Assembly: GCA_964397415.1 (NCBI GenBank)
Contig: CAYNIJ010000005.1
Coordinates: 110,580 to 174,579 of the forward strand
From: an uncultured Ignavibacteriales bacterium
GTDB lineage: Bacteria > Zixibacteria > MSB-5A5 > GN15 > FEB-12
DNA length: 64,000 nt
Direction: 5' to 3'
This document shows positions 6,160 to 58,164 of the stretch, piece by piece (within the stretch, counting starts at the first letter, position 1; every line of letters starts with the position of its first letter). The notes under the pieces are model-generated. The model searched no databases. It worked only from the letters and a program-made list of their open reading frames with translations, and was not told where the DNA came from. Both the position numbers and the translations under genes were made by a program.

Positions 6160-7095
6160 TCAACTCGCATTGGCATCTTTGTTCGCTGCTTCTCGAAGTT
6201 CCTTGTACGTTTGCCCGATCAGTGCTCCAACGATAAAGACCAACGACGAATAGTAGATCCAGAGCCCGAGCATCACCGCCACCACATACGCGCCGTAAAT
6301 CTTCTTCAGGCTGGAGGTATGCAGGACATACCATCCAAACGCTTCTTTAGCCAGAAACCAGAGAACAGTCGCGGACAGCGCGGCGATCATCACGACTCGC
6401 ATCGGTTGTCGCCGCTGTGGCACAGCCAGATAAAGAGTGGCATACCCTCCCAAAATCAACACGACTGTCACTACCTGAAACAGGTAGCGCTGAGCCATTT
6501 CGAGATTGAATTTCTGAAGTACCTGTAGTCTGGATGCCAGCGTTAATCCGACATCGGTCAACGGAACTACGCCGATGGAAAGAACGAAATAGGCCATGAC
6601 AAGCAACACGACTCCCAGATCCCGAAACTTGCCATGGTAAATGCGCGCTCCCCCTTGCACCCGAAACGCCGCGTTCAATATGGTCCGCATGCTCGAAAAA
6701 AGACCACTCGAGGCCAGCAAAAGACCAAGAATACCTATTAGCCCGGCGGCGTTCTTGTAAATTCGAAATTCTTCCGCCCGCGCGAAAACCACCGACTTGA
6801 GGGAATCGGCGAACTGCTGATGTGGCACGGCCCGATCTATGAATTGCCCGATCTCCGCGATCAACGCCGTCTTTTCGAAAACCATCCCGAGTACCGAAAA
6901 CGCGATCAAGCCGAGCGGGATTATGCAGAACAAGAACGAAAACGCCAGCCCTCCGGACATGAGGAACAGATGGTGCTCCTCCACCTTGTGGTACATAATA
7001 GTTATGAACCGCCAGATGCTCGACCAGATATGCTTCGCCTTTTTCATCTCAGCAAATATATCATTCAACAACCCCGGCCGCCAGATTTTTGCCAC
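6160..7095 (-). CDS. YihY/BrkB family inner-membrane protein
   Basis: A multi-pass membrane protein with the typical YihY layout (HHLFLMSGGLAFSFLF...). Confidence 0.75.
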   Translation of the reverse strand: MAKIWRPGLLNDIFAEMKKAKHIWSSIWRFITIMYHKVEEHHLFLMSGGLAFSFLFCIIPLGLIAFSVLGMVFEKTALIAEIGQFIDRAVPHQQFADSLKSVVFARAEEFRIYKNAAGLIGILGLLLASSGLFSSMRTILNAAFRVQGGARIYHGKFRDLGVVLLVMAYFVLSIGVVPLTDVGLTLASRLQVLQKFNLEMAQRYLFQVVTVVLILGGYATLYLAVPQRRQPMRVVMIAALSATVLWFLAKEAFGWYVLHTSSLKKIYGAYVVAVMLGLWIYYSSLVFIVGALIGQTYKELREAANKDANAS

Positions 7096-7154
7096 TCACC
7101 ATATCTTGCCGGAAAGGGCTTGTGTCTGCAGGACAGAATTGTATCTTCGACCGC

Positions 7155-7913
7155 ATGCTTGAGCCATTTTATAAGTTCACTACGATCGCCGAACGGCCCG
7201 ATCTTGAGCCCAAGATCCACGACCTGACCAGCGCCTCCTGGCCTGGCTTCATGTATGAGAACGAGGTCGCCAACGTCAATTTCAAGTACCTCTTCTCCGA
7301 CTTCCCGCAGTACCAATTCGCCCTGGTCGATACTCGCGATGACTCAGTCGTCGCTCAGGGAAACTCCATCAGCTTCCACTGGGATCACCCGATCGAACAA
7401 CTTCCCGATGAAGGCTGGGAGTGGGTTATTTTGAAGGGAATCGAGGATCTCCGCGCCGGACGAACCCCCAATTGTCAATCTGCCTTGCAGATCTGCATTA
7501 GCTCGGGTTTGCGAAGCAAAGGAGTCAGCGGCGAAGTCGTCAAGTTTATGCGAAGCCTTGGCGGAAGGAACGGTATTCCCCATATGGTCGCGCCGGTCCG
7601 CCCGAATCGGAAAGCTGATTATCCGCTCGTTTCGATGGATGACTACATAACATGGAAAACCGATGAAGGCCTTCCCTTCGATGCCTGGATGCGCGTCCAT
7701 GCCCGCCTCGGCGCGCGCGTCGTTTCAGTTTGTCACAAAGCGTTTTGGGTGAAAAATACGATCGCCAACTGGGAGAAATGGACCGGCCTGTCATTCAAAC
7801 AGTCTGGTTCGTACACAATTCCTGGAGCGCTGAATCCGATCGAGATTGATATGAAGGCTGACCTCGGGGTCTACTGCGAACCGAACGTCTGGATGTATCA
7901 TCCCCCTCGCTGA
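7155..7913 (+). CDS. Hypothetical protein, possibly GNAT-fold acyltransferase
   Basis: RSKGVSG resembles the R/Q-x-x-G-x-G/A acetyl-CoA loop. Start placed at the ATG at 7155 (MLEPFYKF). The 7089 start would overlap the divergent yihY. Confidence 0.45.
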   Translation: MLEPFYKFTTIAERPDLEPKIHDLTSASWPGFMYENEVANVNFKYLFSDFPQYQFALVDTRDDSVVAQGNSISFHWDHPIEQLPDEGWEWVILKGIEDLRAGRTPNCQSALQICISSGLRSKGVSGEVVKFMRSLGGRNGIPHMVAPVRPNRKADYPLVSMDDYITWKTDEGLPFDAWMRVHARLGARVVSVCHKAFWVKNTIANWEKWTGLSFKQSGSYTIPGALNPIEIDMKADLGVYCEPNVWMYHPPR

Positions 7914-7929
7914 AAAAGCAAGGCAATGA

Positions 7930-9042
7930 CTAGCGCCAATACGGCGCTAGTCGGCGTATCCCCTCTTCAATCTGCTCTGGCTTTGCGGCGAAGCTGACCC
8001 GCACATATTTTCTTCCTCGTTCGCCGAACGCCAGACCAGGTATCACCACCACATCTACTTCATCGCGAATCCGCAGAGCAAAGCCAATAGGATCATCGAT
8101 TGCCGACATTGGCAACTTCATGAAATGGTAGAATGATCCATCCGGCGGAGTCTCCTCGACTCCGAAATGTTCGCGCTTGGCCCTGCGAACTGCCTCCCAT
8201 CGCGCATTCAGCTCCATGCGCGCCGCGCGGTGTATCTCCTCGCTGTGCTCCACAAGCGCCAGCGCCGCTTTCTGCGCCACGTACGATGGTGAAGTAGTTG
8301 CATAACTATGCACCGTCCGGGCCGGGGCCAGAGTATCAGGACTCCCGACCATCCAACCCACCCGCAACCCCGGCGCCCCCCACCCTTTGCTGACAGAACT
8401 GACTACCACGCCGTATGTTGAAACTTCCCGAAGACTTGGTGGCCGCTTCTCAAAATAGAGATCGCGATAGACCTCGTCAGAAATCAGCAATATCCCACGC
8501 TCATGACATGCCTCAGCGATTTGCCGTAGGTCATCCGCCGTGCACCCTGCTCCCGTAGGATTCGACGGATGATTCACTATCACCGCCTTGACGTTCGGAT
8601 TGCCGAGCCGCGACAATAATTCGCCCGCGTTCAATCTGAATCTATTCGCTTGATCAAGCGGATAGTAATCCGGCTCCGCCTGCGAGAACCGTACTATATT
8701 GGGGTAGGTGACAAATCCGGGGTCCGGCAACAACACCTTGTCCCCCGGTCCCACCCACGACTGGATAAGTGAGAACAGACCACCGATCGACCCCTGCGTG
8801 ATCACCACTTCATCGAAGGTAACCCCGTAATACTTCGCGACCGCGTGTCGAAGTTCAGGCAGTCCTGTCCCCGCACCGTATGGCGCACGCCCAGACCAAT
8901 CACGCAATACTTTCTGCGCCGGCTCCGGCAGATCCCAGGTCGGCTCGCCAATCCCCAACGGTATCGCGGTTGGTCGAGCCCCTTCCGCTATCTGACGGAT
9001 CAGGCTGATATCCAGCGACCCTATACGCGATGCCCGCTCCAT
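7930..9042 (-). CDS. Class I/II PLP-dependent aminotransferase (aromatic/aspartate type), last gene of the aro operon
   Basis: Aminotransferase motifs (NPSNPTG, SKGWGAPGLRVGW). Start placed at MERASRIG, 5 nt after the tyrA stop. Confidence 0.8.
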   Translation of the reverse strand: MERASRIGSLDISLIRQIAEGARPTAIPLGIGEPTWDLPEPAQKVLRDWSGRAPYGAGTGLPELRHAVAKYYGVTFDEVVITQGSIGGLFSLIQSWVGPGDKVLLPDPGFVTYPNIVRFSQAEPDYYPLDQANRFRLNAGELLSRLGNPNVKAVIVNHPSNPTGAGCTADDLRQIAEACHERGILLISDEVYRDLYFEKRPPSLREVSTYGVVVSSVSKGWGAPGLRVGWMVGSPDTLAPARTVHSYATTSPSYVAQKAALALVEHSEEIHRAARMELNARWEAVRRAKREHFGVEETPPDGSFYHFMKLPMSAIDDPIGFALRIRDEVDVVVIPGLAFGERGRKYVRVSFAAKPEQIEEGIRRLAPYWR

Positions 9043-9046
9043 CGGT

Positions 9047-9913
9047 CTACTTTTTCCCCCGCTTGCTCGCCTTGTGCGCCTGCTTGACATATTGCGCCAG
9101 AGCATCGGAGTCCGGCTTGTTGATCAGTTTGCGAAGTTTCGCGAGCTCCGATTCCATTTGAGAAATTGCCTTGGTCACTTCGGCCCGATTACTCTGCAAG
9201 AGATTCTTCGTGAGTTCAGGCGAGGACTTCGCAACCCGCGTCGCGCTCTTGAGGCTCCCTCCCGCCAGACGCCACAGCAGTTTGTCGCTCTGCCCGGTTT
9301 CAGCAGTCACCTGAACTAGCGCTGTCGCGATCGCATATGGCAAATGGCTGGTCTGCGCCAGCAATCGGTCATGCCGTTTTGCGCCGATCATCAGCGGCAC
9401 GCCGCCGAGGGACTGTATCATCTGTTTGACCAGTCGTACTTGCGAAGGTTTGGCGCTTGTCGCGGGAGTCATGGTGATGATCTTCTTCTCGAACAACCCC
9501 GCTGTCGCCGACTCTATTCCCTCTCCCTCCGTTCCCGCGATCGGGTGAAGGCTCACATACCCCGCGAGTGGCTTCAGTCGCTCCACCGCCTGAAGTATCT
9601 CGACTTTGGTACTCGCAACATCAACGCAAAGACTGCCAGCCGGAAGCATCTCAAGTACCGAGGGCAATAGCCGAAGAGTCACATCGATCGGTGTCGCCAA
9701 TATCACGATTTCCGCGGAGCTCAATCCTGCTCGAAGGTTCGCCACCGTTTGGTCGACCGCGCCTCGTTCCTGGGCGCGAGCCATAACCGCTTTGTGCGAA
9801 TCGAATCCGACAACTCGCGCCACAATTCGCCGTCCCACCAGATCCAGCCCTATCGAGCCACCGATCTGACCAAGACCGACCGTGAGCGCGGTCATCTCGC
9901 CAAGCTTTTTCAT
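9047..9913 (-). CDS. tyrA: Prephenate dehydrogenase
   Basis: Rossmann motif VGLGQIGGS and a prephenate dehydrogenase-like C-terminal half. ATGA overlap with the aroF stop. Confidence 0.8.
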
Positions 9914-10923
9914 ATCGTCCGTTTTACTGCCTGTGCCACATGCTCCAGATCATTCATTAGTTCGGCAAAATCCGCCGGATACATACTCTGAACACCGTCG
10001 GAAAGCGCGCGTTCCGGATCGGGATGCACTTCGATTATCAGTCCATCCGCTCCGGTCGCGACGGAGCCTTTTGAGACCGGCCCGACCAGTTCGCGCTTGC
10101 CTACCGCGTGACTCGGGTCGACGATCACCGGAAGATGACTCAACTGCTTGAGGATCGGTACCGCCGAGATATCCAGTGTGTTGCGTGTCCATTTCTCAAA
10201 ACTGCGGATACCTCGCTCGCAGAGCATCACGTTTGGATTCCCATTCGACAGAATATATTCCGCCGACATCAACAACTCCTCGATCGTCGCCATCAACCCG
10301 CGCTTCAATAGCACCGGTTTGTGGCTCTTGCCGCACTCTTCTAACAGCGAAAAGTTCTGCATATTCCGCGCCCCGATCTGAAGTATGTCCGCGTAGCTCG
10401 CGACCAGCGATACATCCTGAGGCGATACCACCTCGGTCACTATCGGCAGCCCGAACTGCTCACCAACTTCTTTGAGTATGATCAAGCCCGGTTCACCCAA
10501 CCCCTGGAAACTGTACGGCGACGTTCTCGGTTTGAATGCACCACCTCTCAGGATCTTCGCCCCCGCTTTCGCTACTGCGTCGGCCGAGGCCATCATCTGG
10601 TCGCGCGTTTCCACCGCGCATGGCCCGGCCATCACCACCACCTGTTTCCCCCCGATCTTCACATTGCCGGCCGTGATGACAGAATCTTCCGGCTTGAACT
10701 CCCGACTCGACAGTTTGAACGGCTTCAGGATCGGCACAACTGACTCAACCCCGATCAGCGTCTGAAAGACCGCCGGGTCAACTACCTTTCCGTTGCCGAC
10801 CACGCCGATGATCGTTTTTTTGTCGCCGCGTGAAAGATGCGGACGAAACCCCAACTCCTGTACTCGCTCCAGCACATGCTGGAGACGTTCCTCCGTGGCG
10901 TCCGAGCGCATCACAATGATCAT
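9910..10923 (-). CDS. aroF: 3-deoxy-7-phosphoheptulonate (DAHP) synthase, type I-beta, with N-terminal ferredoxin-like regulatory domain
   Basis: KDO8PS/DAHPS I-beta-like core ([28 protein letters not shown]). The N-terminal ~70 aa resembles the Thermotoga-type regulatory domain. Confidence 0.85.
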
Positions 10924-11294
10924 ACGGGATCTCCTTCGGTGAGGTCGGGGCGTAACTGCCTCGCCTCTCTCAGATATTGGTGTTTTATCTCTTGCGGCGA
11001 TCTGGCGGTATTGACGAGTAGAAGTACCCGCACCACCGATCGCATCGCGCCCGGAACATCGATCTCTTGTGCGCAGATGAGCGGCACGGTCGGCCAGTGG
11101 AGACCGCGTACCGCGTACGCCGGGAACTCGGCCGTCAGATCCGGTGTCGCCGTGAACATGATCCCCGCGATATCATCCGGCTCTAACTGGTTTTCCCGGA
11201 CGATCGCCACCAGCAACTCCCGCGTTGCCGAGGTTATCGCTTCTTTGTTGTTTGCGTCGACCGTCACGGCCCCGCGAATGCCACGCACTGCCAT
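10920..11294 (-). CDS. aroH: Chorismate mutase, AroH class
   Basis: MAVRGIRGA..., a typical AroH N-terminus, at about 120 aa. AAGGAGA RBS. ATGA overlap with aroF. Confidence 0.85.
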
Positions 11295-11327
11295 CGTTGG
11301 ATTCTCCTTGCGGAGGTTTTAATACTA

Positions 11328-11360
11328 TGAAAAAGGCCCGCTGCCATTTGGTAGCGGGCC
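11328..11360 (-). terminator. Attenuator terminator immediately upstream of aroH
   Basis: Minus-strand GGCCCGCU / AGCGGGCC stem (11360-11335) followed by UUUUU (11334-11330). It lies about 35 nt before the aroH start. Confidence 0.7.
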
Positions 11361-11383
11361 TGGATATCTTGCTGACCTTGCTG

Positions 11384-11494
11384 TCAGACTGACATACCAC
11401 CCACTACCGGGTAGAGAGAATAGTAGTAATAGCCCCAATATCGGGCGGCATCATCGGTGGAAAGAGAAGCAATGTAGGATGTCTGGACTACCAT
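11384..11494 (-). CDS. Tyr/Trp-rich leader peptide of the aro operon (36 aa): MVVQTSYIASLSTDDAARYWGYYYYSLYPVVGGMSV
   Basis: AGGAGA lies 9 nt before the ATG at 11494. The peptide has 7 Tyr and 1 Trp, including four consecutive Tyr codons at 11431-11420, and ends in TGA at 11386-11384. It is below the ORF-track size cutoff. Confidence 0.65.
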   Translation of the reverse strand: MVVQTSYIASLSTDDAARYWGYYYYSLYPVVGGMSV

Positions 11495-11518
11495 TGAGTA
11501 ATATCTCCTGGTGTTCTC

Positions 11519-11546
11519 AGTATACCCCAAAGTGCAATTTTGTCAA
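11519..11546 (-). promoter_or_regulatory. Sigma-70-type promoter of the aro leader and operon
   Basis: TTGACA (11546-11541), 16-nt spacer, TATACT (11524-11519) on the minus strand. Confidence 0.6.
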
Positions 11547-11602
11547 GATGGATTCTTTCAGTCGCCTATTGACCGCGGGATAAATGTACCGTGATTGAAC
11601 AG

Positions 11603-11629
11603 CGGGGCTCCCGCTCCACAGGAGCCCCG
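11603..11629 (-). terminator. Hairpin just downstream of the 5'-nucleotidase stop
   Basis: 9-bp GC stem CGGGGCTCC / GGAGCCCCG. The U-tract on the minus strand is poor. Confidence 0.4.
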
Positions 11630-11649
11630 GCCTTTAGATTGACTGCCTC

Positions 11650-13821
11650 CTACTGGAGCAGTAGCATCTTACGCGTCGCCACTGCCCCGTTTGTCTCAAG
11701 TCTATAGAAGTAGACGCCACTGGCAACCGGGTTGCCTGAGGCATCCATCGAATTCCAGGTCGCGGTGTGTATCCCTGCGGATAGATCCCCCTCGACCAGC
11801 GTTGCTACCCGTTCACCCAGTATGTTGTATACCACCAGGCTGACATGAGTCGGCTGTGGCAGGCTGAAAGAGATCGACGTGGTTGGATTGAATGGATTGG
11901 GATAATTCTGCTCCAGAACCAATTCGCTTGGCAAAGTCGCCACTTTCGCCGCTGGCGGCGCCTGCGGTGCGATCATCCCCTGAATATAGCCGGCCAGGTA
12001 GACCAGTCGTTCGGCCGCCATCGGATCAAGATACTTGGATGGCGTCCTTTCGACCTCCTGCTTGAAGATCTCCAGCATCTGCCAGGCCGCTTGCAACGCG
12101 CCGCGCTCTATCAGCTTCTGCGCTTTTAGCACGTGCAGATGCCATGGCGCGACATTGTAGGTCCGCTTCAGCAGCTTGGAATCGATATACTGGGTGATCG
12201 CCTGATCCAGCAGGAGCGCTGCGTCGGCCGGATCAGCCATCGGCGCCAGATCGAACACCCGCCCGCCGCGATATGCTACCACTGGCGTATGGTCGATCAT
12301 GTAGTCCTTCACGACCGTGTAGACCGGCAAATCAAGGAAGTTAAGATTACTGATAGAGAATCCCGGTATCTGGCTGACAAATCCAACCACCGCGTCCGAG
12401 GTCGACACCGTGTATGTTGCATACGGGTCTATCGGTACGCCGTTGATGCGAACCGATGTATAGTCGACACGCGAGCCGGGTGGATTCGCTTGATTGTACG
12501 CGTACATGATATTTGAACCATGCAGTATGAAATCCTCGGAGTACGGTAGATTGTAGACCGCGAACTCAAGCCCCGCCAGAATAGACATACCGTTCGTCTC
12601 GAACGTCACCAGCTTCAGCCCCAGCCCCGTGGTCTGGTCAAACCCGTATGGGACAGCCTGGAAGATATCCATCCCCCTGACCAGCCCTTTGTAGATCGTC
12701 TGACCGCAAAACCCCTGCGGCTGGAACGCGATATCCGTTCCAGTCACTATCCGGAACGCGTCCGCGATCATATTCCCCATCGGCGTATCCTGGAAGATCC
12801 CATCCGTTCTTGTCTTAGTGATATCAACCGCCGCCACTGCCAGGTTTTCGGAGTATACTGGTCCAAATCGGGGATCCGCCTCGATTCCCATAGCCAGCAT
12901 CTGGATCTGACCGGCAATAGTCGGTTCTTCCGGGACCGACTGATCTATCGGGACAGGATAATAGTCAAAGCCGACCAGGTCTCCGCTTTCGACAACCAGC
13001 GTTGTCCTGCCGACATGCCCCGCAAACTCTCCTGCCTGCACGATCCTGACTCCATTGACCTCAACAGCACCGGGCAGATAGGTGTGAGAATGTCCGCCGA
13101 CTATAACGTCTGCCCCTGAGACCATTTGCGCCAGAACGCAGTCAACTTCAAACCCCAGGTGACTAAGGATTATCACGACATCACAGTCATGCGCCGCAAG
13201 CGTATCGATCCACCTCTGCGCTTCTCCAATGGCCGGCAGCACCAGTACCGGCGATGGATTGGATATCTGGTTCGCGCTTTCGGTCAGCAACGCCACCACC
13301 CCGACCCGCGTGTTCCCGTAATCTTTGATCATGTACGGCTGAACAAAGTATCCCATGGTCGGCTCGCCACTGACATCCAGATTGGCGCAGAGCACCGGCA
13401 TGGCCGGGTCAGGCAACCCCGCTTGAATCAGCATATACTGCAGGGTCGATGGATAGAGATCAAATTCATGGTTCCCCAGCGCAACCGCATCATACCCGAT
13501 CGCTTTCATCAGCATCAACTGGGGAATGCTGAGATACTCCTGAAACATGAAATCCCCGACCGAATAGTCCCCGGCATCCAACACCAGAGTATTGGGCGAC
13601 TGCATCCGGGTCATCCCGATCAGCGTCGCGACTCGGGCAAAACCTCCCCATTGCCAGTTCCCCGAGGCATCCTTTGGCCCATACGGCAAGAGATGCGCAT
13701 GCGTGTCATTCGTGTGCAGAATGACGATCGAATCCGGCTGAGCAATCGCTACAGCGCAGCACATCAGTATCGCCGCCAGCACTGTTACTAACGTTTTCAC
13801 TGAAGCCTTCCCTTGCGGCAT
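11650..13821 (-). CDS. Secreted metallophosphatase/5'-nucleotidase with T9SS-type C-terminal sorting domain
   Basis: HTNDTHAH and GNHEFD motifs and a signal peptide. The C-terminal ~85 aa (LEQNYPNPFNPTT...GVYFYRL...KMLLLQ) is a typical Por/T9SS CTD. Confidence 0.85.
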   Translation of the reverse strand: MPQGKASVKTLVTVLAAILMCCAVAIAQPDSIVILHTNDTHAHLLPYGPKDASGNWQWGGFARVATLIGMTRMQSPNTLVLDAGDYSVGDFMFQEYLSIPQLMLMKAIGYDAVALGNHEFDLYPSTLQYMLIQAGLPDPAMPVLCANLDVSGEPTMGYFVQPYMIKDYGNTRVGVVALLTESANQISNPSPVLVLPAIGEAQRWIDTLAAHDCDVVIILSHLGFEVDCVLAQMVSGADVIVGGHSHTYLPGAVEVNGVRIVQAGEFAGHVGRTTLVVESGDLVGFDYYPVPIDQSVPEEPTIAGQIQMLAMGIEADPRFGPVYSENLAVAAVDITKTRTDGIFQDTPMGNMIADAFRIVTGTDIAFQPQGFCGQTIYKGLVRGMDIFQAVPYGFDQTTGLGLKLVTFETNGMSILAGLEFAVYNLPYSEDFILHGSNIMYAYNQANPPGSRVDYTSVRINGVPIDPYATYTVSTSDAVVGFVSQIPGFSISNLNFLDLPVYTVVKDYMIDHTPVVAYRGGRVFDLAPMADPADAALLLDQAITQYIDSKLLKRTYNVAPWHLHVLKAQKLIERGALQAAWQMLEIFKQEVERTPSKYLDPMAAERLVYLAGYIQGMIAPQAPPAAKVATLPSELVLEQNYPNPFNPTTSISFSLPQPTHVSLVVYNILGERVATLVEGDLSAGIHTATWNSMDASGNPVASGVYFYRLETNGAVATRKMLLLQ

Positions 13822-22717: not shown

Positions 22718-22813
22718 CACTACTCGCTTGCGCCCGCGCATCTCAGCGTTTCAGTGTCTCAGCACCGCATCATGCCGCGTAGGCGGGCATCCAGACTATT
22801 CGATTCACTGTAC

Positions 22814-22831
22814 CCCACCATTTATGGTGGG
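22814..22831. repeat. CCCACCATTTATGGTGGG palindromic repeat, copy 1
   Basis: 8-2-8 perfect palindrome preceded by GTAC and by a GC hairpin at 22772-22790. It sits in a convergent intergenic gap. Confidence 0.7.
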
Positions 22832-22845
22832 CTCCTACCGCCGTC

Positions 22846-25308
22846 CTACGGACAAGCCGGCAACGCCGGCCGCGGCGTCTGTGTCAGGTAGGCAATGAGC
22901 AGAGAAAGGTCTGAAAGGTCCGGTCTAGTCCCCAAGCCATTTACATTCGCTTCCTCAGGACATCCACATTCCAACCAGGACCACATTGTCAAAGACTCGA
23001 TAAGCATTGACAGATCCGAAAGGTCTACTCCTCCAAACCCATCGACATTTCCCCGGATTCCCACACAGCAGCACGCATTCCCGATTCCATCACCATTGGT
23101 GTCTTTTTGGTCCGAATTGCTTACAAGGGGACAGTTGTCGCTGTCGTCCGGCACTCCATCACCATCCGAATCGATCTTCTTTGTCCATGCCGCAACATGA
23201 TTGGCCGCAACCTCACCTGCAGTAGTAAACCTTCCTCCGACAATGAGCATGGTGTCGAATACGCAGAGTGATGACACCGCAGAGTCAGTACCAGACCCCA
23301 GCGGCTGCCAGGTTACGCTGTTCCAACCGGCAATGTGCGGGGCCAAGAATCCACCCGCGGCGCGAAAATCTCCGCCGGCGATGAGCAAATTCCCCCTCGC
23401 GACCAATGATCTTACTTCACCATCGGTTCCTGTGCCCAGAGGTGACCAGGTTGCGCCATTCCATGCCGCAATATGCTGAGCCGCGCCGTTTCCCGCGGTC
23501 GTGAAGCTGCCGGCGGCAATCAAGGAGTTGTTGTAGAGGGCGAGGCATTTTACTTCGCCGTCTGTTCCTGATCCAACTGCTGACCATGACACACCATCCC
23601 AAGTGGCGATGTTGTCAGCGGGTATCTCACCTGCCGCGGTAAAGTTGCCGCCTGCGACCAACCGATCTTCATACACAATGAGCGAATTCACTCTCCCATT
23701 CACCCCATCTCCTACAGGCTTCCACATGCCCTCGTCCCACACGGCAACATGACTAACCACTTCTCCCGCGGCTGAGTTGAATTCTCCTGCCGCGAACAGG
23801 TGACCACGAAAGGCCGTGAGCGCGAGAACAGATTGTTCAAATCCGCTACCTATCGGAGACCACTGCTCTCCGCTCCAGAGAGCAACGCGATTGGCCGCGA
23901 CTCCTCCGGCCATAGTAAACGAACCACCAACTACTAGCTCATTATCGAATGCACCAAGGGAGGAAACAGTGCCATTCACCCCCAGCCCAAGGCCACTCCA
24001 CGTTGTTCCATCCCACGATGCTATGTGGGAAGCCGGAAATCCTGCTATTCGTGAAAAATCACCCGCGATGATCAGTTTTTTTTTAGAACTGCAAGCGGCG
24101 AGAACTGATGCGTTCGTTCCTAATCCCCACGACAACCATTCGAACCCATTCCACGACGCGAAGTATGCCGCGTCAACATCGCCGGCCCGCGTGAACAAGC
24201 CACCCGCCGTCAGACTCTCCTCATCGGCATGCAGGACACCAATGTAGTCATTTGCTCCCGCACCTAATGGTGACCAGCCGATTCCGTCCCATGCAGCTAT
24301 GTGGCTGGAGGCTACATCTCCGGCCACAGTGAAATTTCCTCCTGCGATCAATTCATCCTGAAAGACAGTGAGACTCCAGACCCCCTCGTTCATGCCCGAT
24401 CCCAGACCAGACCACGCGCCACCATTCCAGGCCGCAATGTAAGGGAAAGGCCCACCTCCGGCCGACGTGAAGGTCCCGCCGACTATCAGTTGGCTATCAT
24501 ACACGCACAATGTGCGAACGTAATCATTAGTCCCCCAGCCGAGTGGCGCCCAGTTCACTCCATCCCATGACGCAATGCAACTGACGTTTCTTTCGCCGGC
24601 CCGGGTAAACGCTCCGCCCGCGATCAACTTGCCATCATACACTGCAAGAGCTTCGCAATGATCGTTTAGCCCTGACCCGAGGGAAGACCATGCGGCGCCA
24701 TTCCAGGCGGCAATACGACTCGCAGGATTCCCCCCGGCGGTTGTGAAGTACCCCCCAGCGATCAACAAATCATCGTAGACTATCAGATCAAACACCTCAC
24801 GGTCAGTTCCCTCGCCAAGAGGGAGCCATTCGACACCGTCCCATTCCGCCACCCTCATCGCGGTGGTCTCTCCCGAGGCAGTGAAATTGCCCGCCGCGAT
24901 CAACCTGTCCTTGTATACTGCGAGGGAAAAGACCGAACGATTAAGGCCCTCGCCCAGGGGAGTCCATCTGCTTCCATCCCAGACCGCGATATTGTCTGCG
25001 CTGATATTACCGACAGCGGAAAAACTCCCGGCAATTACCAACTTCCCCTGGAAACGACAGATTGCGGAGACACGCCCATTGGTGCCGGTTCGTGAGAAAT
25101 CTTGTGACCAGTATTGATCATCTGGATTCAAAGTGGCCAGCACTCCCGCCGGCAAAATCTCAGCCTTAATCCCCTCCAGTGCCTGTGACTCGCCAAAGGC
25201 AAAGAGGATCAATCCACATCTGATGAATGTGATAAGAGCTTTCACGCGTAAGTATCGTGGGATCGTATGACATGTGAACATAGCCGAGCGTCGTCCATTG
25301 ATAATCAT
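22846..25308 (-). CDS. Secreted repeat protein: about 14 beta-propeller blades, a thrombospondin type-3-like Ca-binding repeat, and a dockerin-like C-terminus
   Basis: 13 full copies of a ~47-aa unit (IAxW[DN]GxxWxxLGxGxNxxVxxLxxxxxxLIxGGxFTxAG). These are followed by [29 protein letters not shown] and two D/N-rich segments ([37 protein letters not shown]). Confidence 0.75.
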
Positions 25309-41465: not shown

Positions 41466-43223
41466 ATGAAAACGATCACAGTCGGACTTGGCACCTGCGG
41501 CATCTCTGCCGGCGGCGAAAAAGTCTTTAAAGCATTACAGGACGAACACAAAGACCACCCGAACGCTTTCGTTCTCAAAGAGACCGGATGTGTTGGTATG
41601 TGCTATCGCGAAGTTCTGGTCGAGATCACTAATGGCTCCGGCACCGGCCATCTTTACGGCGAAGTTACTCCCGAGCGGGTCGGCCGCATCATCGATGAAG
41701 ACGTGCTCGGCAACAAACAGATCGACGAATGGCTCGTCTCCGGCGAACAGCGCGAAAAGGGATTCTTCGAAAATCAGGTTCGCATCGTCCTCCGCAATTG
41801 CGGAAAGATCGACCCCGGCTCAATCGATGAATACATCGCCGCCGGTGGCTACAAGGCGATTGAAAAAGCGCTCAGGTCGATGACTCAGGATCAGGTTATC
41901 GAAGAAGTCCTCCAGTCCGGCCTTCGCGGTCGCGGCGGCGCCGGTTTCATGACCGGCCTCAAATGGAAATTCACCAAAGCCGCCCCCGGCACCAAAAAGT
42001 ATATCCTCTGTAATGCCGATGAAGGCGACCCCGGCGCGTTTATGGATCGCTCCGTGCTCGAGTCCGACCCACACGCCGTTCTCGAAGGAATGATGATCGC
42101 CGCCTACGCGATCGGCGCCGATGATTCCTACATCTACTGCCGAGCTGAATATCCGAAAGCTGTTGCCCGTCTCCGCCAGGCGATCGGCCAATGCAAAGCC
42201 AAAGGGTTGCTCGGCGAGAATATCCTCGGTACCGGCTTCAAGTTTGATATCAAGATCAAGGAAGGCGCCGGCGCGTTCGTCTGCGGAGAAGAGACAGCGC
42301 TCATCGCCTCCATTGAAGGCCGCCGTGGCATGCCCCGCTTCCGCCCACCGTTCCCGGCCCAGTCCGGACTCTGGGGTAAACCAACCAACATTAACAATGT
42401 TGAGACGTACGCCAACGTCCCCTGGATTATTTTGAACTCCGGCGCAGCGTTCGCCGCCTACGGTACCGCCGATTCAAAAGGGACGAAAGTCTTCGCGATG
42501 GCCGGCAAAGTCCGTCGCACTGGGCTCGTCGAAGTCCCGATGGGGATCACCGTCAACCAGATCGTATTTGATGTCTGCGGCGGCATCGTCGACGACAAAA
42601 AGTTCAAAGCCGTCCAGATGGGCGGGCCCTCCGGTGGATGTATCCCCGCCTCAATGGGTGATATCTCAATCGACTACCAGAATATCCCCAAGACTGGCGC
42701 CATCATGGGCTCCGGCGGTCTCATCGTCATGGATGAAACCACCTGTATGGTCGATGTCGCCAAGTACTTCCTCACCTTTACGCAGGCTGAGTCCTGCGGC
42801 AAATGCACGTTCTGCCGCATCGGCACCAAGCGGATGCTTGAGATTCTCGAGCGCATCTGCGAAGGAAAGGGGACGATGGATGACCTCGCCAACCTCGACG
42901 AGCTCTCCGAACAGATCAAGGCCGCTTCGCTCTGCGGTCTCGGTCAATCCGCCCCCAACCCGGTCGTAACTACATTGAAATACTTCCGTGATGAATATGT
43001 CGCGCATATCGTCGATAAGAAATGCCCGGCCCATGTCTGCGCGCCGTTGTTGACCTACACCATCAACGACAACTGCACCGGCTGCGTCGTCTGTGCCAAG
43101 GCCTGCCCCACCAACGCTATCACCGGCGAACGAAAGCAAATGCACTTTATAACGCAGGATCTTTGCATCAAGTGCGGCAAATGCTTCACCGTCTGCCGCT
43201 TCGACGCGGTGGTGAAGGAGTAA
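41466..43223 (+). CDS. NuoF/HydB-like NADH-binding FMN/Fe-S subunit with extra N-terminal 2Fe-2S and C-terminal 2x[4Fe-4S] domains
   Basis: GRGGAGFMTGLKW, CNADEGDPGAF and ESCGKCTFCR motifs. The C-terminus has CTGCVVCAKACP and CIKCGKCFTVC. Confidence 0.9.
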   Translation: MKTITVGLGTCGISAGGEKVFKALQDEHKDHPNAFVLKETGCVGMCYREVLVEITNGSGTGHLYGEVTPERVGRIIDEDVLGNKQIDEWLVSGEQREKGFFENQVRIVLRNCGKIDPGSIDEYIAAGGYKAIEKALRSMTQDQVIEEVLQSGLRGRGGAGFMTGLKWKFTKAAPGTKKYILCNADEGDPGAFMDRSVLESDPHAVLEGMMIAAYAIGADDSYIYCRAEYPKAVARLRQAIGQCKAKGLLGENILGTGFKFDIKIKEGAGAFVCGEETALIASIEGRRGMPRFRPPFPAQSGLWGKPTNINNVETYANVPWIILNSGAAFAAYGTADSKGTKVFAMAGKVRRTGLVEVPMGITVNQIVFDVCGGIVDDKKFKAVQMGGPSGGCIPASMGDISIDYQNIPKTGAIMGSGGLIVMDETTCMVDVAKYFLTFTQAESCGKCTFCRIGTKRMLEILERICEGKGTMDDLANLDELSEQIKAASLCGLGQSAPNPVVTTLKYFRDEYVAHIVDKKCPAHVCAPLLTYTINDNCTGCVVCAKACPTNAITGERKQMHFITQDLCIKCGKCFTVCRFDAVVKE

Positions 43224-51287: not shown

Positions 51288-52241
51288 TTACTTGCGTATC
51301 GACCCGAAGTATATCGCTGCCAGCGTTACCACCGCCCCAATCAATTGCAGCGGCCCGAGCATCTCACCGAAGAATAGAAATCCCCAGACTGTCGCCATGG
51401 TCGGTTGTAACAGAAGTGCCAGCCCCGCACGGTGCGCGTCGATATGCGGCAACGATGATGATATCACCCTCCACCCTATCGCCTGCGGAATCAATCCCAA
51501 TCCCAATAAAAAGAGCCAGCTTCTCCCGTCGGGCGGCAACATCTCCTCCCCTTCAATAAGTCCCGAAGCTCCGAGAAATATCGCGCAGAAGAGCGCAGTC
51601 CAGGCCATCAAGGCAAGCGTCCCGACCTGCACATGCTCATGGCTCGCTTTTTTCACCAGCGAGATATACGACGCGTAGCAGATCCCCGTCAGCAGCCCGA
51701 AGAATACCCCCATCAAATAGTGCTCGGTCAACTGAATATCTTCACTCCCCACACCGATCAAGAGCACGATCCCGACAAACCCCACTATCGCCGCGACAAA
51801 AAACTTGAGCGTCAGCTTTTCTCTAAACGCGAAATAGCCGAGTATCGCGCTTCCGAACACTTGTGTATTTCCGAGAATGGTCGCCATCCCCGCCCCGGTG
51901 ATGAAGATCGACCGATGCCAGGTCCAGAGATCGCAGAAGAACGCAAACCCCGCCGCGATCGACCAGAGATATATCCGCTTGGGTAACCCGAGACTTTTCC
52001 CTTCAAGAGCCGTCCACGCAAACATGATGACCGAACCAAGCAACATCCGCCAAAATCCGATCGCGCTCGGCCCCATCCGATCACTCCCGATCCCCTTCAC
52101 GAATATTGCCGCAAAGGAGATACAGAGCGCCCCGAACAACAGTAACACAAACGCCCGCGACGCACTGATATGATGCGGGCTATTTGACTGACTGCTTACT
52201 GGGATATTTGACGGAGTATTGTGTGGAAAGTCTGTCGCCAT
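51288..52241 (-). CDS. EamA/DMT family transporter
   Basis: Ten predicted TM helices arranged as two EamA-like halves. Confidence 0.8.
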   Translation of the reverse strand: MATDFPHNTPSNIPVSSQSNSPHHISASRAFVLLLFGALCISFAAIFVKGIGSDRMGPSAIGFWRMLLGSVIMFAWTALEGKSLGLPKRIYLWSIAAGFAFFCDLWTWHRSIFITGAGMATILGNTQVFGSAILGYFAFREKLTLKFFVAAIVGFVGIVLLIGVGSEDIQLTEHYLMGVFFGLLTGICYASYISLVKKASHEHVQVGTLALMAWTALFCAIFLGASGLIEGEEMLPPDGRSWLFLLGLGLIPQAIGWRVISSSLPHIDAHRAGLALLLQPTMATVWGFLFFGEMLGPLQLIGAVVTLAAIYFGSIRK

Positions 52242-52324
52242 GACCGCAAGAATAACTCCCCCGATTTACTCCGCCAAGTACTTTGATGTCACAGATGCAA
52301 TTCGCATTGCGCCGGGATCTGCGC

Positions 52325-52383
52325 GGCAGGCGTCCCCGTCTGCCCACCCTATTGATTCACCGTACCCCACCATTTATGGTGGG
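52325..52383. repeat. Composite repeat: GGCAGGCG-TCCC-CGTCTGCC hairpin, ATTGATTCAC, and GTAC-CCCACCATTTATGGTGGG (copy 2)
   Basis: Hairpin at 52325-52344 and palindrome at 52366-52383. The linker is nearly identical to the one at 22797-22813. Confidence 0.7.
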
Positions 52384-52453
52384 ATTTTCAAAGAAATTGT
52401 AGGTCAGGAACCTTGCTCGAAGGGCGGCGTAGCCGGTTCCTGACATCTTCTCT

Positions 52454-52522
52454 GTCATCGCGAGCCTTGCCCTGCACTTCCCTCTCATCTCAACCCGACT
52501 CTTCGACGGCAAGGCGTCGCGA
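52454..52522. repeat. GTCATCGCGAG... element, diverged copy B
   Basis: Long inverted repeat TCGCGAGCCTTGCC / GGCAAGGCGTCGCGA flanking about 36 nt. Confidence 0.5.
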
Positions 52523-52707
52523 TCCCCTCTTTTCTTCTCTTGCCTCACCCCTCCCATTTTGGTTTCTTACGACTCGGGAGTAACCATGACCAACATCCGG
52601 ATGAATTCTGTCGAATCCCCAGCCTCGCCAACCCTACGGGCATCGGATTTGACGTCACAAACTCGAATTCGCTAATAGTTCGGACAAGGAGCGGGAAGAG
52701 GCAGATT

Positions 52708-53796
52708 ATGACGGTATGGCAAATTGCAGCAGGGGAGTCTGGTCGATATTATGATGATCTGTTCCTCAAGTGGAACATAATGTTCATGGGGCCAGGCCAG
52801 TTCGGTGCGTACGATCCATCAACGTATGGGAAGTGCGTCGCAAGCAAAATCCTCACCAAGCATAAGAACGATCAGTTGTGCAAGTTTGCGAACGAAGTCG
52901 AGCCGGGCCAGCTAGTCCTGCTAAGGAAGGGATACACGGTGACGTGCGTGGGGATTGTTGCAGACCAGCCATACGTTTGGGATAGACGCTTTGACGATGT
53001 CTACGGGTGGGACTTGCAGCACACGCGACGCGTTATCTGGCAAACGAACACGACACCGCGACTCTTGGAAATACAAGAATATAGTCCTGATGACGAGAGG
53101 TATCGGAAGCCGCTGTTCGGCGGCCGAAAACAAATTCCAACATTTACTAGGGTCGATGATGTGCGCGTCATAGAGCCGATTAGACACTTGCTAAATAGCC
53201 AGGACGTCGCTACACCAGAGCCAATCGATCTTAATGTTCCCGAGCCTTTGACCCTGGACCAATTGGGTGAACTGCTTTTTGCGAAAGGACTCTCAAACGA
53301 TTCGGTTGAGGAGGTGCTTGACGCGATTCGACGGCAACGACGACTTGGTAAGTGGTACCAAACGCAGCGTGATAGCGGAAGACCGGCTGAGCACGAGGTC
53401 GTCGCCCACATGATCCTGCCATTGTTGCTGGGACTAGGGTGGTCCGAACAACTACTAGCGGTCGAGTGGCAACGTATCGATTTGGCCGGTTTCCGATCGA
53501 CGCCAACTGGGAAAGACTCGTGCGTCTTGCTGTGTGAAGCAAAACAAATGTGGTACCCCTTACAACCTGCTCTTGACCAAGCTCGAGGTTATGTTGACAG
53601 CCTCGGATTGACCCATTGCAAGAGAATCATGCTTACCGATGGGGTCAGGATCTACGTGTACCGAAAGAACAACGATCTGTGGTCCGACCAGCCATCGGGC
53701 TATGTAAATATGAATCTGATTCGTCTTGACCACCTTGCCCCACAAGGCGTAAGTGCTGTAGATACACTGATGGAACTGACGCCTGGCGCACAATGA
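52708..53796 (+). CDS. Standalone PD-(D/E)xK nuclease (HsdR-N / Mrr-like C-terminal domain) with an uncharacterised ~190-aa N-terminal domain
   Basis: Start at MTVWQIAAGE after GAAGAGG. The C-terminus has EHEVVAHMILPLLLGLGW...IDLAGF...VLLCEAKQ...QARGYV (E...D...ExK...QxxxY). The codon usage is more AT-rich than in the neighbours. Confidence 0.6.
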   Translation: MTVWQIAAGESGRYYDDLFLKWNIMFMGPGQFGAYDPSTYGKCVASKILTKHKNDQLCKFANEVEPGQLVLLRKGYTVTCVGIVADQPYVWDRRFDDVYGWDLQHTRRVIWQTNTTPRLLEIQEYSPDDERYRKPLFGGRKQIPTFTRVDDVRVIEPIRHLLNSQDVATPEPIDLNVPEPLTLDQLGELLFAKGLSNDSVEEVLDAIRRQRRLGKWYQTQRDSGRPAEHEVVAHMILPLLLGLGWSEQLLAVEWQRIDLAGFRSTPTGKDSCVLLCEAKQMWYPLQPALDQARGYVDSLGLTHCKRIMLTDGVRIYVYRKNNDLWSDQPSGYVNMNLIRLDHLAPQGVSAVDTLMELTPGAQ

Positions 53797-53858
53797 GCTT
53801 GTAGTCGACAATCCGGCCGCTATAGCTGGCCTGCGACGCACCATCGCCTTGCGATCAT

Positions 53859-53895
53859 AAAAAAAAAACAGGGCCTTACGGCCCTGTTCTCTTCT
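53859..53895. terminator. Bidirectional terminator (strong for htrA)
   Basis: A10 run, then stem AACAGGGCC / GGCCCTGTT with loop TTAC, then CTCTTCTTC. Confidence 0.75.
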
Positions 53896-53909
53896 TCGGT
53901 CTCACCTCC

Positions 53910-55397
53910 TCAACCGATATCAAACGCCACAAACCGCTGCATCTCGCCGCGTGACACCAGGAGCAACACCGTACTCCCTTTCTTAAGCGACCGCAGCGCG
54001 CTGTCGAACTCCGCCACCGATGTCACCGGTTTGCGATTCACTTCGCGGATGACATCGCCGACGCGCAATCCACCCTGACGCGCCGCCATACTCGACTCAT
54101 CGACATTGGTCACCACGACGCCGTCGGCATTTTCCGGGATCTCGAACTGCCGGGCATACTCACGTGTGATAGTCCCGACATCAAAGCCTGGATCGATCGC
54201 CAGCTCACTCTCTTCTCCTTTCGACTGGCGACGGATCGTGCCATCCTCGTTCTGCTCCGGCAGTTCGCCCAGCTTGACTGTCAGCGCCTTTTCGCGGTTA
54301 TCCCGAATCAGACCAAGGGTCACGGTTGTGCCCGGGTCGGTCCGCGCGATCAGGTTGCGCAACTGCGCCGAATTGTTCACTTCTGTGCTGTTCACTTTCA
54401 CCACGACATCACCCGGCGCGATACCGGCATCCTCCGCCGGACTCTCCGGAGCCACCGAGCCGATCAGAACACCACTGTTATCATCGAGCCCCATCGCTCG
54501 CGCCATGACATCGTTGACATCCTGTATTCCGACCCCGAGCCATCCGCGCACCACGCGCCCGTTGTCGACCAGTTCGTTCTTGATATCCATCGCCATATTG
54601 ACCGGTACGGCGAATCCGATCCCCTGGAAACCACCTGAGCGTGACGCGATGGCGGTGTTAATCCCGACCAGCTCACCATCCAGATTCACCAGCGCTCCAC
54701 CGGAGTTACCCGGGTTGATCGCGGCGTCCGTCTGAATGAAATCTTCATAATCGGCCAGGCCGACATTCGAGCGCCCCTTCGCGCTGACAATACCCTGCGT
54801 CACCGTATGCGCGAGATTCGGATTCAAGGGCGAACCGATCGCCATCACCATTTCGCCGACTTCAAGCTGATCGCTGTTCCCCTGTTTCACGGGAGTCAGG
54901 TTGTCCGCTTCGACTTTTATCACCGCGATATCGGTTTTGTCGTCCGCGCCGATCACTTTGGCGGCATAGGTCTTGCCGTCACTGAAGCGGACCACGATCG
55001 AGTCAGCGCCTTCGATCACATGATTGTTGGTCAGGATATAGCCATCCTCCGACACCACCACTCCCGAGCCCAATCCCTGCTGCCGCAACTCCTGTTGCGG
55101 GGACTGTCCTCCGCGCGGCGTCCCGAAGAACTGCTCGAACTGGTCACCGAACGGTCCGAAATTGAAATTCCCGATCCCCCGCATCTTTACCACTTTCTCG
55201 GTCGAGACGGTCACGACCGAGGGAGTAACATCTTTGGCGATCTGGATGAACGCCTTGTTCAGATCACGGAGCGACTGCATCGCCGCGCTTCCATCCCCCT
55301 TCTGCGCCACCGCTGATCCTGCCGGTAGCATATACGCCAGTCCTATCACCAACAGAACCAACAGCGACATCACTGTCATCTGTCTAGTCTTGAGCAT
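53910..55397 (-). CDS. Do/DegP/HtrA family serine protease with two PDZ domains
   Basis: TNNHV and GNSGGALVN catalytic motifs, a signal peptide and two PDZ-like segments. Confidence 0.9.
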   Translation of the reverse strand: MLKTRQMTVMSLLVLLVIGLAYMLPAGSAVAQKGDGSAAMQSLRDLNKAFIQIAKDVTPSVVTVSTEKVVKMRGIGNFNFGPFGDQFEQFFGTPRGGQSPQQELRQQGLGSGVVVSEDGYILTNNHVIEGADSIVVRFSDGKTYAAKVIGADDKTDIAVIKVEADNLTPVKQGNSDQLEVGEMVMAIGSPLNPNLAHTVTQGIVSAKGRSNVGLADYEDFIQTDAAINPGNSGGALVNLDGELVGINTAIASRSGGFQGIGFAVPVNMAMDIKNELVDNGRVVRGWLGVGIQDVNDVMARAMGLDDNSGVLIGSVAPESPAEDAGIAPGDVVVKVNSTEVNNSAQLRNLIARTDPGTTVTLGLIRDNREKALTVKLGELPEQNEDGTIRRQSKGEESELAIDPGFDVGTITREYARQFEIPENADGVVVTNVDESSMAARQGGLRVGDVIREVNRKPVTSVAEFDSALRSLKKGSTVLLLVSRGEMQRFVAFDIG

Positions 55398-58058: not shown

Positions 58059-58155
58059 GTAGGGCGGGTCCGTCTTCGAACCCGCCTTACTCCAGACCAA
58101 AACCGTACCCCACCATTCATGGTGGGGCTAGGCTGTACGCCACCATTTATGGTGG
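58059..58155. repeat. Composite repeat: GC hairpin plus two tandem GTAC-CCACCATTyATGGTGG palindromes (copies 3 and 4)
   Basis: Hairpin GTAGGGCGGGT / ACCCGCCTTAC (58059-58090). Palindromes at 58108-58127 and 58140-58155. Confidence 0.7.
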
Positions 58156-58164
58156 GTCCAATGA

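Follow-up and report, generated by a model that had tools for sequence, protein, structure and literature searches.

In enzymes of the VcaM4I/TspA15I group (EVE–HNH; PDB 6yex), a single polypeptide of ~300–360 aa carries an N-terminal reader domain of the PUA superfamily, a helical linker and a C-terminal nuclease. VcaM4I flips 5-methylcytosine (5mC) or 5-hydroxymethylcytosine (5hmC) into its EVE pocket and is auto-inhibited by the helical linker (PMC7897488), and enzymes of this type typically stand alone without a methyltransferase (PMC6765204). Fusion of an EVE domain to a PD-(D/E)xK nuclease has been catalogued as a predicted type IV restriction architecture, EVE-PD(D/E)XK (Bell, Wolf & Koonin 2020, PMC7641849; PMC6765204), and reader, helical linker and nuclease together form the standard design of modification-dependent restriction enzymes that work independently of nucleoside triphosphates (NTPs). 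Here we describe a gene of similar layout in a 64,000-nt stretch of an uncultured Zixibacteria genome (contig CAYNIJ010000005.1, positions 110,580 to 174,579; hereafter ‘the window’). It lies between the genes for an EamA transporter and an HtrA-type protease, and encodes a 362-aa protein that we assign to the Pfam family DUF8426 (PF28530). By analogy with the enzymes above, we consider it probable that this horizontally acquired gene encodes a stand-alone, single-gene type IV (modification-dependent) restriction endonuclease of an uncharacterised family.

An original prediction, made by a model reading the letters of the window, had put forward the same gene as a candidate single-gene defence or modification-dependent restriction element. 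Fold searches, synteny, the contexts of homologues and the absence of a partner gene now support that candidacy. The kind of system is known, but the DUF8426 family itself is without a prior functional account, and we found no literature on PF28530 or DUF8426; to a specialist the type IV reading should seem plausible more than surprising. The parts of the gene referred to below are as follows.

52708..53796, plus strand: coding sequence of the 362-aa DUF8426-family protein, stop codon included (open reading frame (ORF) list and homologue starts)
52708..53205, plus strand: predicted N-terminal PUA-superfamily (EVE/YTH-like) reader domain, aa 1–166 (AlphaFold2 and Foldseek)
53206..53379, plus strand: inter-domain linker with two helices, aa 183–192 and 197–219 (AlphaFold2 secondary structure)
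53380..53793, plus strand: predicted C-terminal PD-(D/E)xK nuclease domain of HsdR-N/MmeI-N type, aa 225–362 (Foldseek and weak profile matches)
53479..53481, plus strand: codon of D258, the motif I/II aspartate in ‘RIDLAGF’ (sequence and conservation)
53536..53544, plus strand: codons of E277-A278-K279, the ExK motif in ‘CEAKQ’ (sequence and conservation)
53578..53592, plus strand: codons of Q291-A-R-G-Y295, the QxxxY motif in the helix directly after ExK (sequence and conservation)

The mechanical ORF at this locus spans 52540–53796 on the plus strand. We chose the ATG at 52708 as the start because homologues begin there, 1–3 residues ahead of a conserved VWQIAAG motif, and because the in-frame extension 52540–52707 lies mostly in DNA also present in relatives that lack the gene, 52540–52654 being flank common to those relatives. 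These limits, and the position between EamA and htrA, are those first proposed for the coding sequence, and they agree with both the ORF list and the homologue alignments. The identical 362-aa protein (P0001) is recorded from one NCBI assembly and two Logan runs.

Searches of the window protein against Pfam, NCBIfam and the PDB (phmmer and two profile searches) produced no significant match, the Pfam copy scanned being one without the PF28530 model. AlphaFold2, using a 46-sequence alignment, modelled the full protein with a predicted local distance difference test score (pLDDT) of 92.7 and a predicted template modelling score (pTM) of 0.87; for the N-domain alone the values were 93.2 and 0.89. 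Fold searches covering both halves, which the original prediction had proposed as a check, returned a PUA-superfamily reader and a PD-(D/E)xK nuclease.

In PDB searches for the N-domain, Foldseek placed the VcaM4I EVE–HNH enzyme first (E = 2.7e-4 and 3.3e-4; probability 1.0), followed by dozens of YTH domains, which read N6-methyladenosine (m6A), and by the EVE proteins 1zce and 2gbs. Probabilities were 0.99–1.0 for the VcaM4I EVE domain, YTHDF1–3, YTHDC1, 1zce and 2gbs, and among the 50 matches listed for the isolated N-domain model, 50 were PUA-superfamily structures. Template modelling (TM) scores to these structures were 0.4–0.5 (YTHDF2, TMt ~0.5), and the N-domain carries an extra helical insertion at aa 37–62. 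From the model, the N-domain is predicted to share the PUA-like β-barrel fold yet to form a distinct clade. The likeness to PUA/EVE-type readers suspected for this half thus held at the level of fold, while the Pfam EVE model matched only 1 of 46 homologues, with E = 0.16.

Residue conservation was counted in 220 full-length homologues, down to ~27% identity with the window protein. In the N-domain, W4, R13, Y15, R73, D97, W101, H105 and W111 were conserved in 86–100% of them (W111 in 220/220), with G82 and Y89 similarly conserved. W4, Y15, Y89, D97, W101, H105 and W111 form a candidate base-binding pocket.

For the C-domain, Foldseek with the full-length model found an HsdR fragment (3h1t), DrdV (7lvv) and a phage protein annotated ‘HsdR N-terminal domain’ (E = 2e-4). 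In the AlphaFold2 model, E230 lies in a helix (228–242), D258 in a strand (257–262) and E277 in another (272–278), with K279 one residue past that strand, so that a D…ExK set on core strands is accompanied by a helix glutamate, as in PD-(D/E)xK nucleases. Q291 follows 12 residues after K279 and lies with Y295 in helix 287–299; a QxxxY motif carried by the helix that follows motif III is a mark of RecB-family and HsdR nucleases, among them EcoR124I HsdR (PMC2475608), and places the domain in the HsdR-N/RecB branch. These residues are nearly invariant: E228 in 217/220 homologues, E230 in 218, D258 in 219, E277 in 219, K279 in 218, Q291 in 215 and Y295 in 212. The HsdR-N/Mrr-type signature originally noticed in this half is thereby sharpened to E228/E230, D258, E277-A-K279 and Q291-x3-Y295, each present in 212–219 of the 220. 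Neither HSDR_N nor MmeI_N of Pfam matched the window protein above its curated threshold; below threshold, MmeI_N matched 4 of 46 homologues (best E = 0.0023) and HSDR_N 2 of 46 (best E = 0.089), and the N-terminal regions of the mad2 and type I methyltransferase (MTase_I) models matched the C-domain at aa 230–329. On the evidence of the model, we take the C-domain to be an HsdR-N/MmeI-N-like PD-(D/E)xK nuclease with its catalytic set complete. Strong purifying selection acts on both domains, which argues against a decayed gene.

The gene occupies a slot whose content differs between close relatives. Its borders were set by comparison with three syntenic Zixibacteria relatives (L053, L055 and L056).

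52655..53853, unstranded: window-specific cassette of 1,199 bp in the htrA–EamA slot (blastn against L053, L055 and L056)
L053 3503–6000, L055 3968–6000 and L056 4848–6000, unstranded: the corresponding slots, with window 52655–53853 (syntenic comparison)
52649..52654, plus strand: TTGACG hexamer that closes the conserved left flank and so marks the left cassette junction (four-genome junction comparison)
51288–52241, minus strand: EamA, a drug/metabolite transporter (DMT) protein (neighbour; ORF list)
53910–55397, minus strand: HtrA-type protease (neighbour; ORF list)

In the relatives the gene order is Por_Secre_tail – HtrA – [slot] – EamA – aminotransferase, and in the window, too, an aminotransferase and a Por_Secre_tail protein lie beyond EamA and HtrA. 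Homologues of the window’s EamA protein assign the organism to the clade Zixibacteria. The EamA proteins of the three relatives are 91%, 89% and 85% identical to that of the window, and the flanking nucleotides are ~90% identical in the closest relative and 70–84% in the other two. Homology by blastn ends at 52654 and restarts at 53854 (53838 against L056 and L057), so the cassette holds essentially the DUF8426 gene alone. The left junction falls directly after a conserved TTTGACG and the right one just ahead of an A-run and hairpin, as seen in all four genomes compared; no direct or inverted repeats indicating an att site or target-site duplication were found at the two junctions. In place of the DUF8426 gene, L053 and L055 carry a gene for an unrelated 285-aa membrane-like protein, and L056 and L057 an outer-membrane protein (OMP) β-barrel gene with a 76-aa ORF. 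We considered whether the 285-aa gene might be a diverged DUF8426 homologue and ruled this out (BLASTP E = 21; it resembles a membrane protein).

With four genomes, flanks of 70–90% identity and three low-GC cargos between the same junctions, the htrA–EamA slot is a gene-exchange hotspot, and the DUF8426 gene is an insertion or replacement in it rather than a core gene. The synteny comparison between EamA and htrA, suggested when the gene was first noticed, therefore came out in favour of an insertion: relatives with the same flanks lack the gene and hold other cargo. In the window the slot has a GC content of 0.522, lower than that of its flanks (0.545 and 0.579), and the other cargos are likewise GC-poor (0.49–0.51). 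The gene itself has a GC content of 0.519 against a mean of 0.550 for the window’s ORFs (z = −1.2; 52 ORFs). Its GC content at third codon positions (GC3) is 0.564, where these ORFs average 0.642 (z = −1.4) and its two neighbours have 0.675 and 0.713; just 7 of the 52 fall below it. The AT shift is thus real but modest: codon usage had been described as visibly more A/T-rich, and GC3 is indeed below that of both neighbours, but by a mild margin. In L053, ~730 bp of extra DNA lies between the equivalents of window positions 52305 and 52320.

Homologues numbered 477 in a 90%-identity cluster database, most of them tagged PF28530, and the family comprises at least 589 clusters or representatives at 50% identity. 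Nearly all homologues are 340–380 aa long and span both halves. A precomputed PF28530 match is present in most homologues, including some up to 65% identical to the window protein, and also in N-domain-only proteins; the record of the window protein itself reads ‘-’, and we infer its membership of DUF8426 from full-length homology. A profile search with the N-domain recovered mostly fragments and a few apparently stand-alone N-domain proteins (P0413 and P0418). We set aside one doubtful DUF8426–TIR_2 fusion (P0203), whose ORF looks truncated or rearranged.

The 45 genomic loci are distributed over Zixibacteria, Planctomycetota, Verrucomicrobiota, Armatimonadota, Acidobacteriota, Betaproteobacteria, Bacillota (Cohnella and Peribacillus), Ignavibacteria, Binatia and one archaeon, a patchy distribution across phyla. 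No DUF8426 member was found in 50,697 INPHARED phage records or in IMG/VR, and plasmid-collection matches were confined to a Cupriavidus chromid, that of Cupriavidus metallidurans CH34, where a copy of 31% identity stands near a TnsA-like gene, with unannotated ORFs around it.

When the neighbours in 42 loci were clustered all against all, none proved to be universally conserved, as an obligate partner would be. The commonest neighbour family was the type I restriction–modification (R-M) methyltransferase subunit HsdM, with HsdS; AAA_21, Mrr_cat, integrase and IS66 genes were also present. Of 42 loci, 8 (~19%) had type I R-M genes no further than 8 kb away, whereas ~80% of copies stand alone. 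In four loci the DUF8426 gene directly precedes hsdM, with an overlap or a gap of no more than 10 nt, and where the upstream region is resolved (two of the four) the order is hsdR-hsdS-X-hsdM, X being the DUF8426 gene and hsdR being of EcoEI_R_C type. The X and HsdM proteins of these hsdM-adjacent loci diverge in parallel. The operons are:

L023 4563–12192 and L036 5752–12522, order resolved, and L030 and L028: type I R-M operons with a DUF8426 gene (Planctomycetota and Ignavibacteria)

In other loci the gene is simply inserted between housekeeping genes. The contexts of the three closest homologues (58–65% identity) are unrelated to one another: one adjoins a type III Mod/Res pair, another PIN-GNAT and Mut7-C proteins, and the third a peptidase. 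At the window locus we found no type I R-M homologue anywhere in the 64 kb, and the coding sequence is flanked by EamA and HtrA only. The claim that the gene has no methyltransferase or ATPase partner is therefore sound for the window; the broader picture of a single gene without a partner stands at this locus and has to be qualified for the family, of which ~19% lies within or beside a type I R-M operon.

Two of these contexts held further observations. In three Planctomycetota (L013, L021 and L024, ~7060–11935), the DUF8426 gene splits a housekeeping pair, purL (FGAM synthase) and purQ (glutamine amidotransferase), its insertion falling precisely between the two. Beside one of the closest homologues (P0003) are a Mut7-C protein and, at L049 2121–4226, a protein of 701 aa that combines GNAT (Acetyltransf) and PIN_3 domains, the latter protein resembling the PIN-GNAT-EVE toxin-like proteins found near defence loci (Bell et al. 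2020, PMC7641849).

How does the DUF8426 protein compare with described systems? It shares with VcaM4I the order of reader, helical linker and nuclease, the size and the single polypeptide, and VcaM4I is the best structural match to its N-domain. It differs in its nuclease, which is of PD-(D/E)xK, HsdR/RecB type rather than HNH, and in its N-domain, which is only 11–14% identical, has the extra helices at aa 37–62 and goes unseen by the Pfam EVE model. The predicted EVE-PD(D/E)XK enzymes and the PUA-PD-(D/E)XK enzymes (Lutz et al. 2019, for example YenY4I) belong to the same architectural class and have the same predicted logic; YenY4I has an additional DUF3427 domain, and the DUF8426 N-domain is a Pfam family of its own. 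With the N-terminal nuclease of HsdR (HSDR_N; EcoR124I) and with MmeI and DrdV, the C-domain has in common the fold (3h1t and 7lvv), D…ExK followed by QxxxY, and weak profile hidden Markov model (HMM) similarity. DUF8426 proteins, however, lack a helicase/translocase or methyltransferase and have a reader domain attached instead, so their way of finding a target must differ from that of HsdR or MmeI. The YTH-domain McrB of Thermococcus gammatolerans (cited in PMC7897488) and other type IV systems directed at N6-methyladenine (6mA) also use a PUA-superfamily, m6A-type reader as specificity module; those systems, though, need a GTPase motor and a separate McrC nuclease, whereas the DUF8426 protein, without a P-loop domain, is by its composition predicted to be NTP-independent. 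The original comparison with ‘Shedu-type or type IV’ logic keeps its second half, a type IV-like reader joined to a nuclease; with Shedu the resemblance is one of logic alone, as no Shedu/DUF4263 model matched the window protein in PADLOC or Pfam scans.

In a defence catalogue, the PADLOC candidate PDC-S02 is remotely related to the N-domain core. Its match to the window protein covered aa 51–118 only and was not a significant full-length match (E = 0.016), but several PDC-S02 HMMs matched 44 of 101 divergent DUF8426 members (best E ~1e-7 to 1e-8). Inspected singly, ten members were matched only in the N-domain core, aa ~40–130 against profile ~35–130 (extremes 35–166 of 308–346). PDC-S02 is likewise a single-gene candidate of ~310–350 aa in which the N-domain core, aa ~50–125, has the equivalent N-terminal position; the similarity does not extend into the DUF8426 C-terminal nuclease, and PDC-S02 is an unvalidated candidate. 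The shared core supports a defence association of the reader domain and proves nothing about activity.

The window gene thus combines a putative sensor domain fused to a nuclease with the lack of a cognate protective methyltransferase in the window, two of the marks of a type IV enzyme, and enrichment beside R-M genes, the patchy spread across phyla, intact catalytic motifs and its status as an insertion all speak for this reading. If it works like VcaM4I and the PUA–nuclease fusions, the N-domain would flip a modified base of incoming DNA into the conserved aromatic and polar pocket, and binding of modified DNA would position or de-repress the nuclease, probably as a dimer, to cut nearby. The recognised mark might be 5mC, 5hmC, a hypermodified pyrimidine or 6mA. 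Host DNA would be spared as free of the mark, so that no cognate methyltransferase would be needed.

Several observations weigh against a stand-alone type IV enzyme. The one representative tested of the remotely related PDC-S02 gave no protection of E. coli B against T4, T5 or T7 (bioRxiv 10.1101/2024.09.26.614923). Neither the Pfam EVE model (PF01878) nor YTH models nor PDB sequence profiles recognised the N-domain, and as its TM-scores reach only 0.4–0.5, the type of ligand is not transferable to it from known readers. The immediate neighbours of the gene are housekeeping genes rather than a defence island, and the other cargos of the slot encode membrane or OMP-like proteins. In addition, the ~19% of copies near type I R-M genes lie by an m6A methyltransferase, several with genes nearly or actually overlapping; fewer than 6% of PUA–nuclease ORFs are near DNA methyltransferases (Lutz et al., PMC6765204). 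Such linkage is mildly awkward if the target is 6mA, because of the risk of self-restriction.

This linkage could instead mean that the protein is a methylation-linked sentinel or an abortive-infection nuclease whose YTH/EVE-like domain senses a signal from the host methylome or cooperates with type I R-M. The tight apposition to hsdM in four loci of two distant lineages and the parallel divergence of X and HsdM fit this idea, as does an N-domain that is structurally as near to YTH m6A readers as to EVE. EVE and ASCH proteins have also been tied to type I R-M loci (Bell et al. 2020, PMC7641849), and a PUA module that binds m6-dAMP is reported for the PUA-Cal-HAD sensor (PMC12871103); as reported for PUA-Cal-HAD, one candidate signal would be the free m6A nucleotide released from a phage-degraded chromosome. 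We nevertheless think a sentinel unlikely, since ~80% of copies, including that of the window, have no methyltransferase nearby and the DUF8426 protein has no oligomerisation or signalling domain. Unrelated defence genes, moreover, are commonly embedded in type I operons. A more specific proposal, quite unlikely in our estimate, is that DUF8426 is a methylome-coupled nuclease whose reader recognises the mark, or the breakdown products, of a partner adenine methyltransferase. The hsdR-hsdS-X-hsdM arrangement would then be the ancestral functional unit, with X either serving type I R-M as an alternative nuclease arm guided by its reader or acting as a sentinel triggered by degradation of methylated host DNA or by inhibition of R-M, and solo copies such as the window gene would work with an unlinked host methyltransferase.

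We give little credence to a toxin or nuclease directed at RNA, with a PUA-like reader for modified bases of tRNA, rRNA or phage RNA and an RNA-cutting PD-(D/E)xK domain. Modified RNA is indeed a ligand of YTH and of many EVE/PUA domains, YTH domains abound among the Foldseek matches, and some type IV-like systems are predicted to target RNA (PMC11090510). The nuclease, however, is of the DNA-cutting HsdR/RecB/MmeI branch with QxxxY present, the top structural match VcaM4I acts on DNA, and no antitoxin or immunity gene adjoins the DUF8426 gene between EamA and HtrA. Least credible of all is a nuclease with a housekeeping role in repair or recombination, or a passenger gene without function. 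The aminotransferase, EamA and HtrA context and the non-defence-like cargos of the slot speak for these readings; against them, the gene is missing from close relatives with the same flanks, its spread across phyla is patchy and both domains are strongly conserved, which speaks against decay. A fold assignment to a housekeeping repair nuclease, which had been named at the outset as one outcome that would refute a defence role, did not emerge, and no repair-family model of Pfam or NCBIfam matched.

Should the type IV reading be true, it would give a function to DUF8426, a family found in many bacterial phyla and at least one archaeon, and a new reader clade would join the type IV restriction repertoire. 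Modification-dependent enzymes are useful as reagents for epigenetic DNA mapping and help to explain the arms races over phage DNA hypermodification, here in little-studied environmental phyla (Zixibacteria and Planctomycetota). The subset of DUF8426 genes embedded in type I R-M operons is a tractable case for asking whether reader–nuclease fusions cooperate with classical R-M. Independently of function, the htrA–EamA slot cleanly illustrates an exchange hotspot of single-gene size, as its cargo differs among close relatives while the two junctions stay the same.

The DNA around the cassette contains repeats and a terminator.

52354–52383, 22802–22831, 58102–58126 and 58135–58156: copies of a dispersed 25–30-nt repeat (repeat search)
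53859..53896, unstranded: terminator made of an A10 run, a 9-bp GC-rich hairpin (53867–53888) and a T-rich tail (terminator scan and folding energy)

The cluster of repeats at 52325–52522 had been taken as the upstream border of the islet; we rejected this, as the cluster sits in flank that is kept in the relatives. Within it are one copy of the dispersed repeat (52354–52383) and a conserved 15-bp inverted repeat (52458–52525). Likewise, the proposed promoter TTGACG-18-TAATAG (52649–52678) did not survive: a sigma-70 consensus scan gave 0 sites, and its TTGACG is the junction hexamer listed above. An Rfam scan of the region yielded sub-threshold noise only. The strong A10/hairpin terminator claimed downstream is present, folding at −16.6 kcal/mol (z = −3.9) on the plus strand and −25.4 kcal/mol (z = −6.6) on the minus strand. 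It is kept in L053, L055 and L056 and so is part of the conserved flank. Because a T10 run trails the hairpin on the minus strand, we assign it mainly to htrA, and it is probably bidirectional, serving both convergent genes.

The dispersed intergenic repeat forms a hairpin, CCCCACCA-TTTA-TGGTGGG(G), has four copies in the window and occurs also within the variable slot of L055 (reverse-complement coordinates ~8850–8880). It is an element like the repetitive extragenic palindromic (REP) sequences, possibly linked to recombination at the hotspot. Upstream of EamA, at 52458–52525, is a 15-bp inverted repeat, ATCGCGAGCCTTGCC … GGCAAGGCGTCGCGAT, with a 36-nt loop, which is perfectly conserved in four related genomes and duplicated in L055. 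As 0 of its 15 pairs covary, it could be a protein-binding palindrome, an element like a miniature inverted-repeat transposable element (MITE) or an RNA structure.

Elsewhere in the window, some ORF calls have an atypical GC content by codon position. At 22846–25308 (minus strand) the value at second positions (GC2) is 0.53, at or above those at first (GC1) and third positions, and three calls at 41488–42969 (plus strand) have GC2 of 0.65–0.77, again at or above GC1 and GC3. This composition suggests wrong-frame calls or unusual low-complexity proteins.

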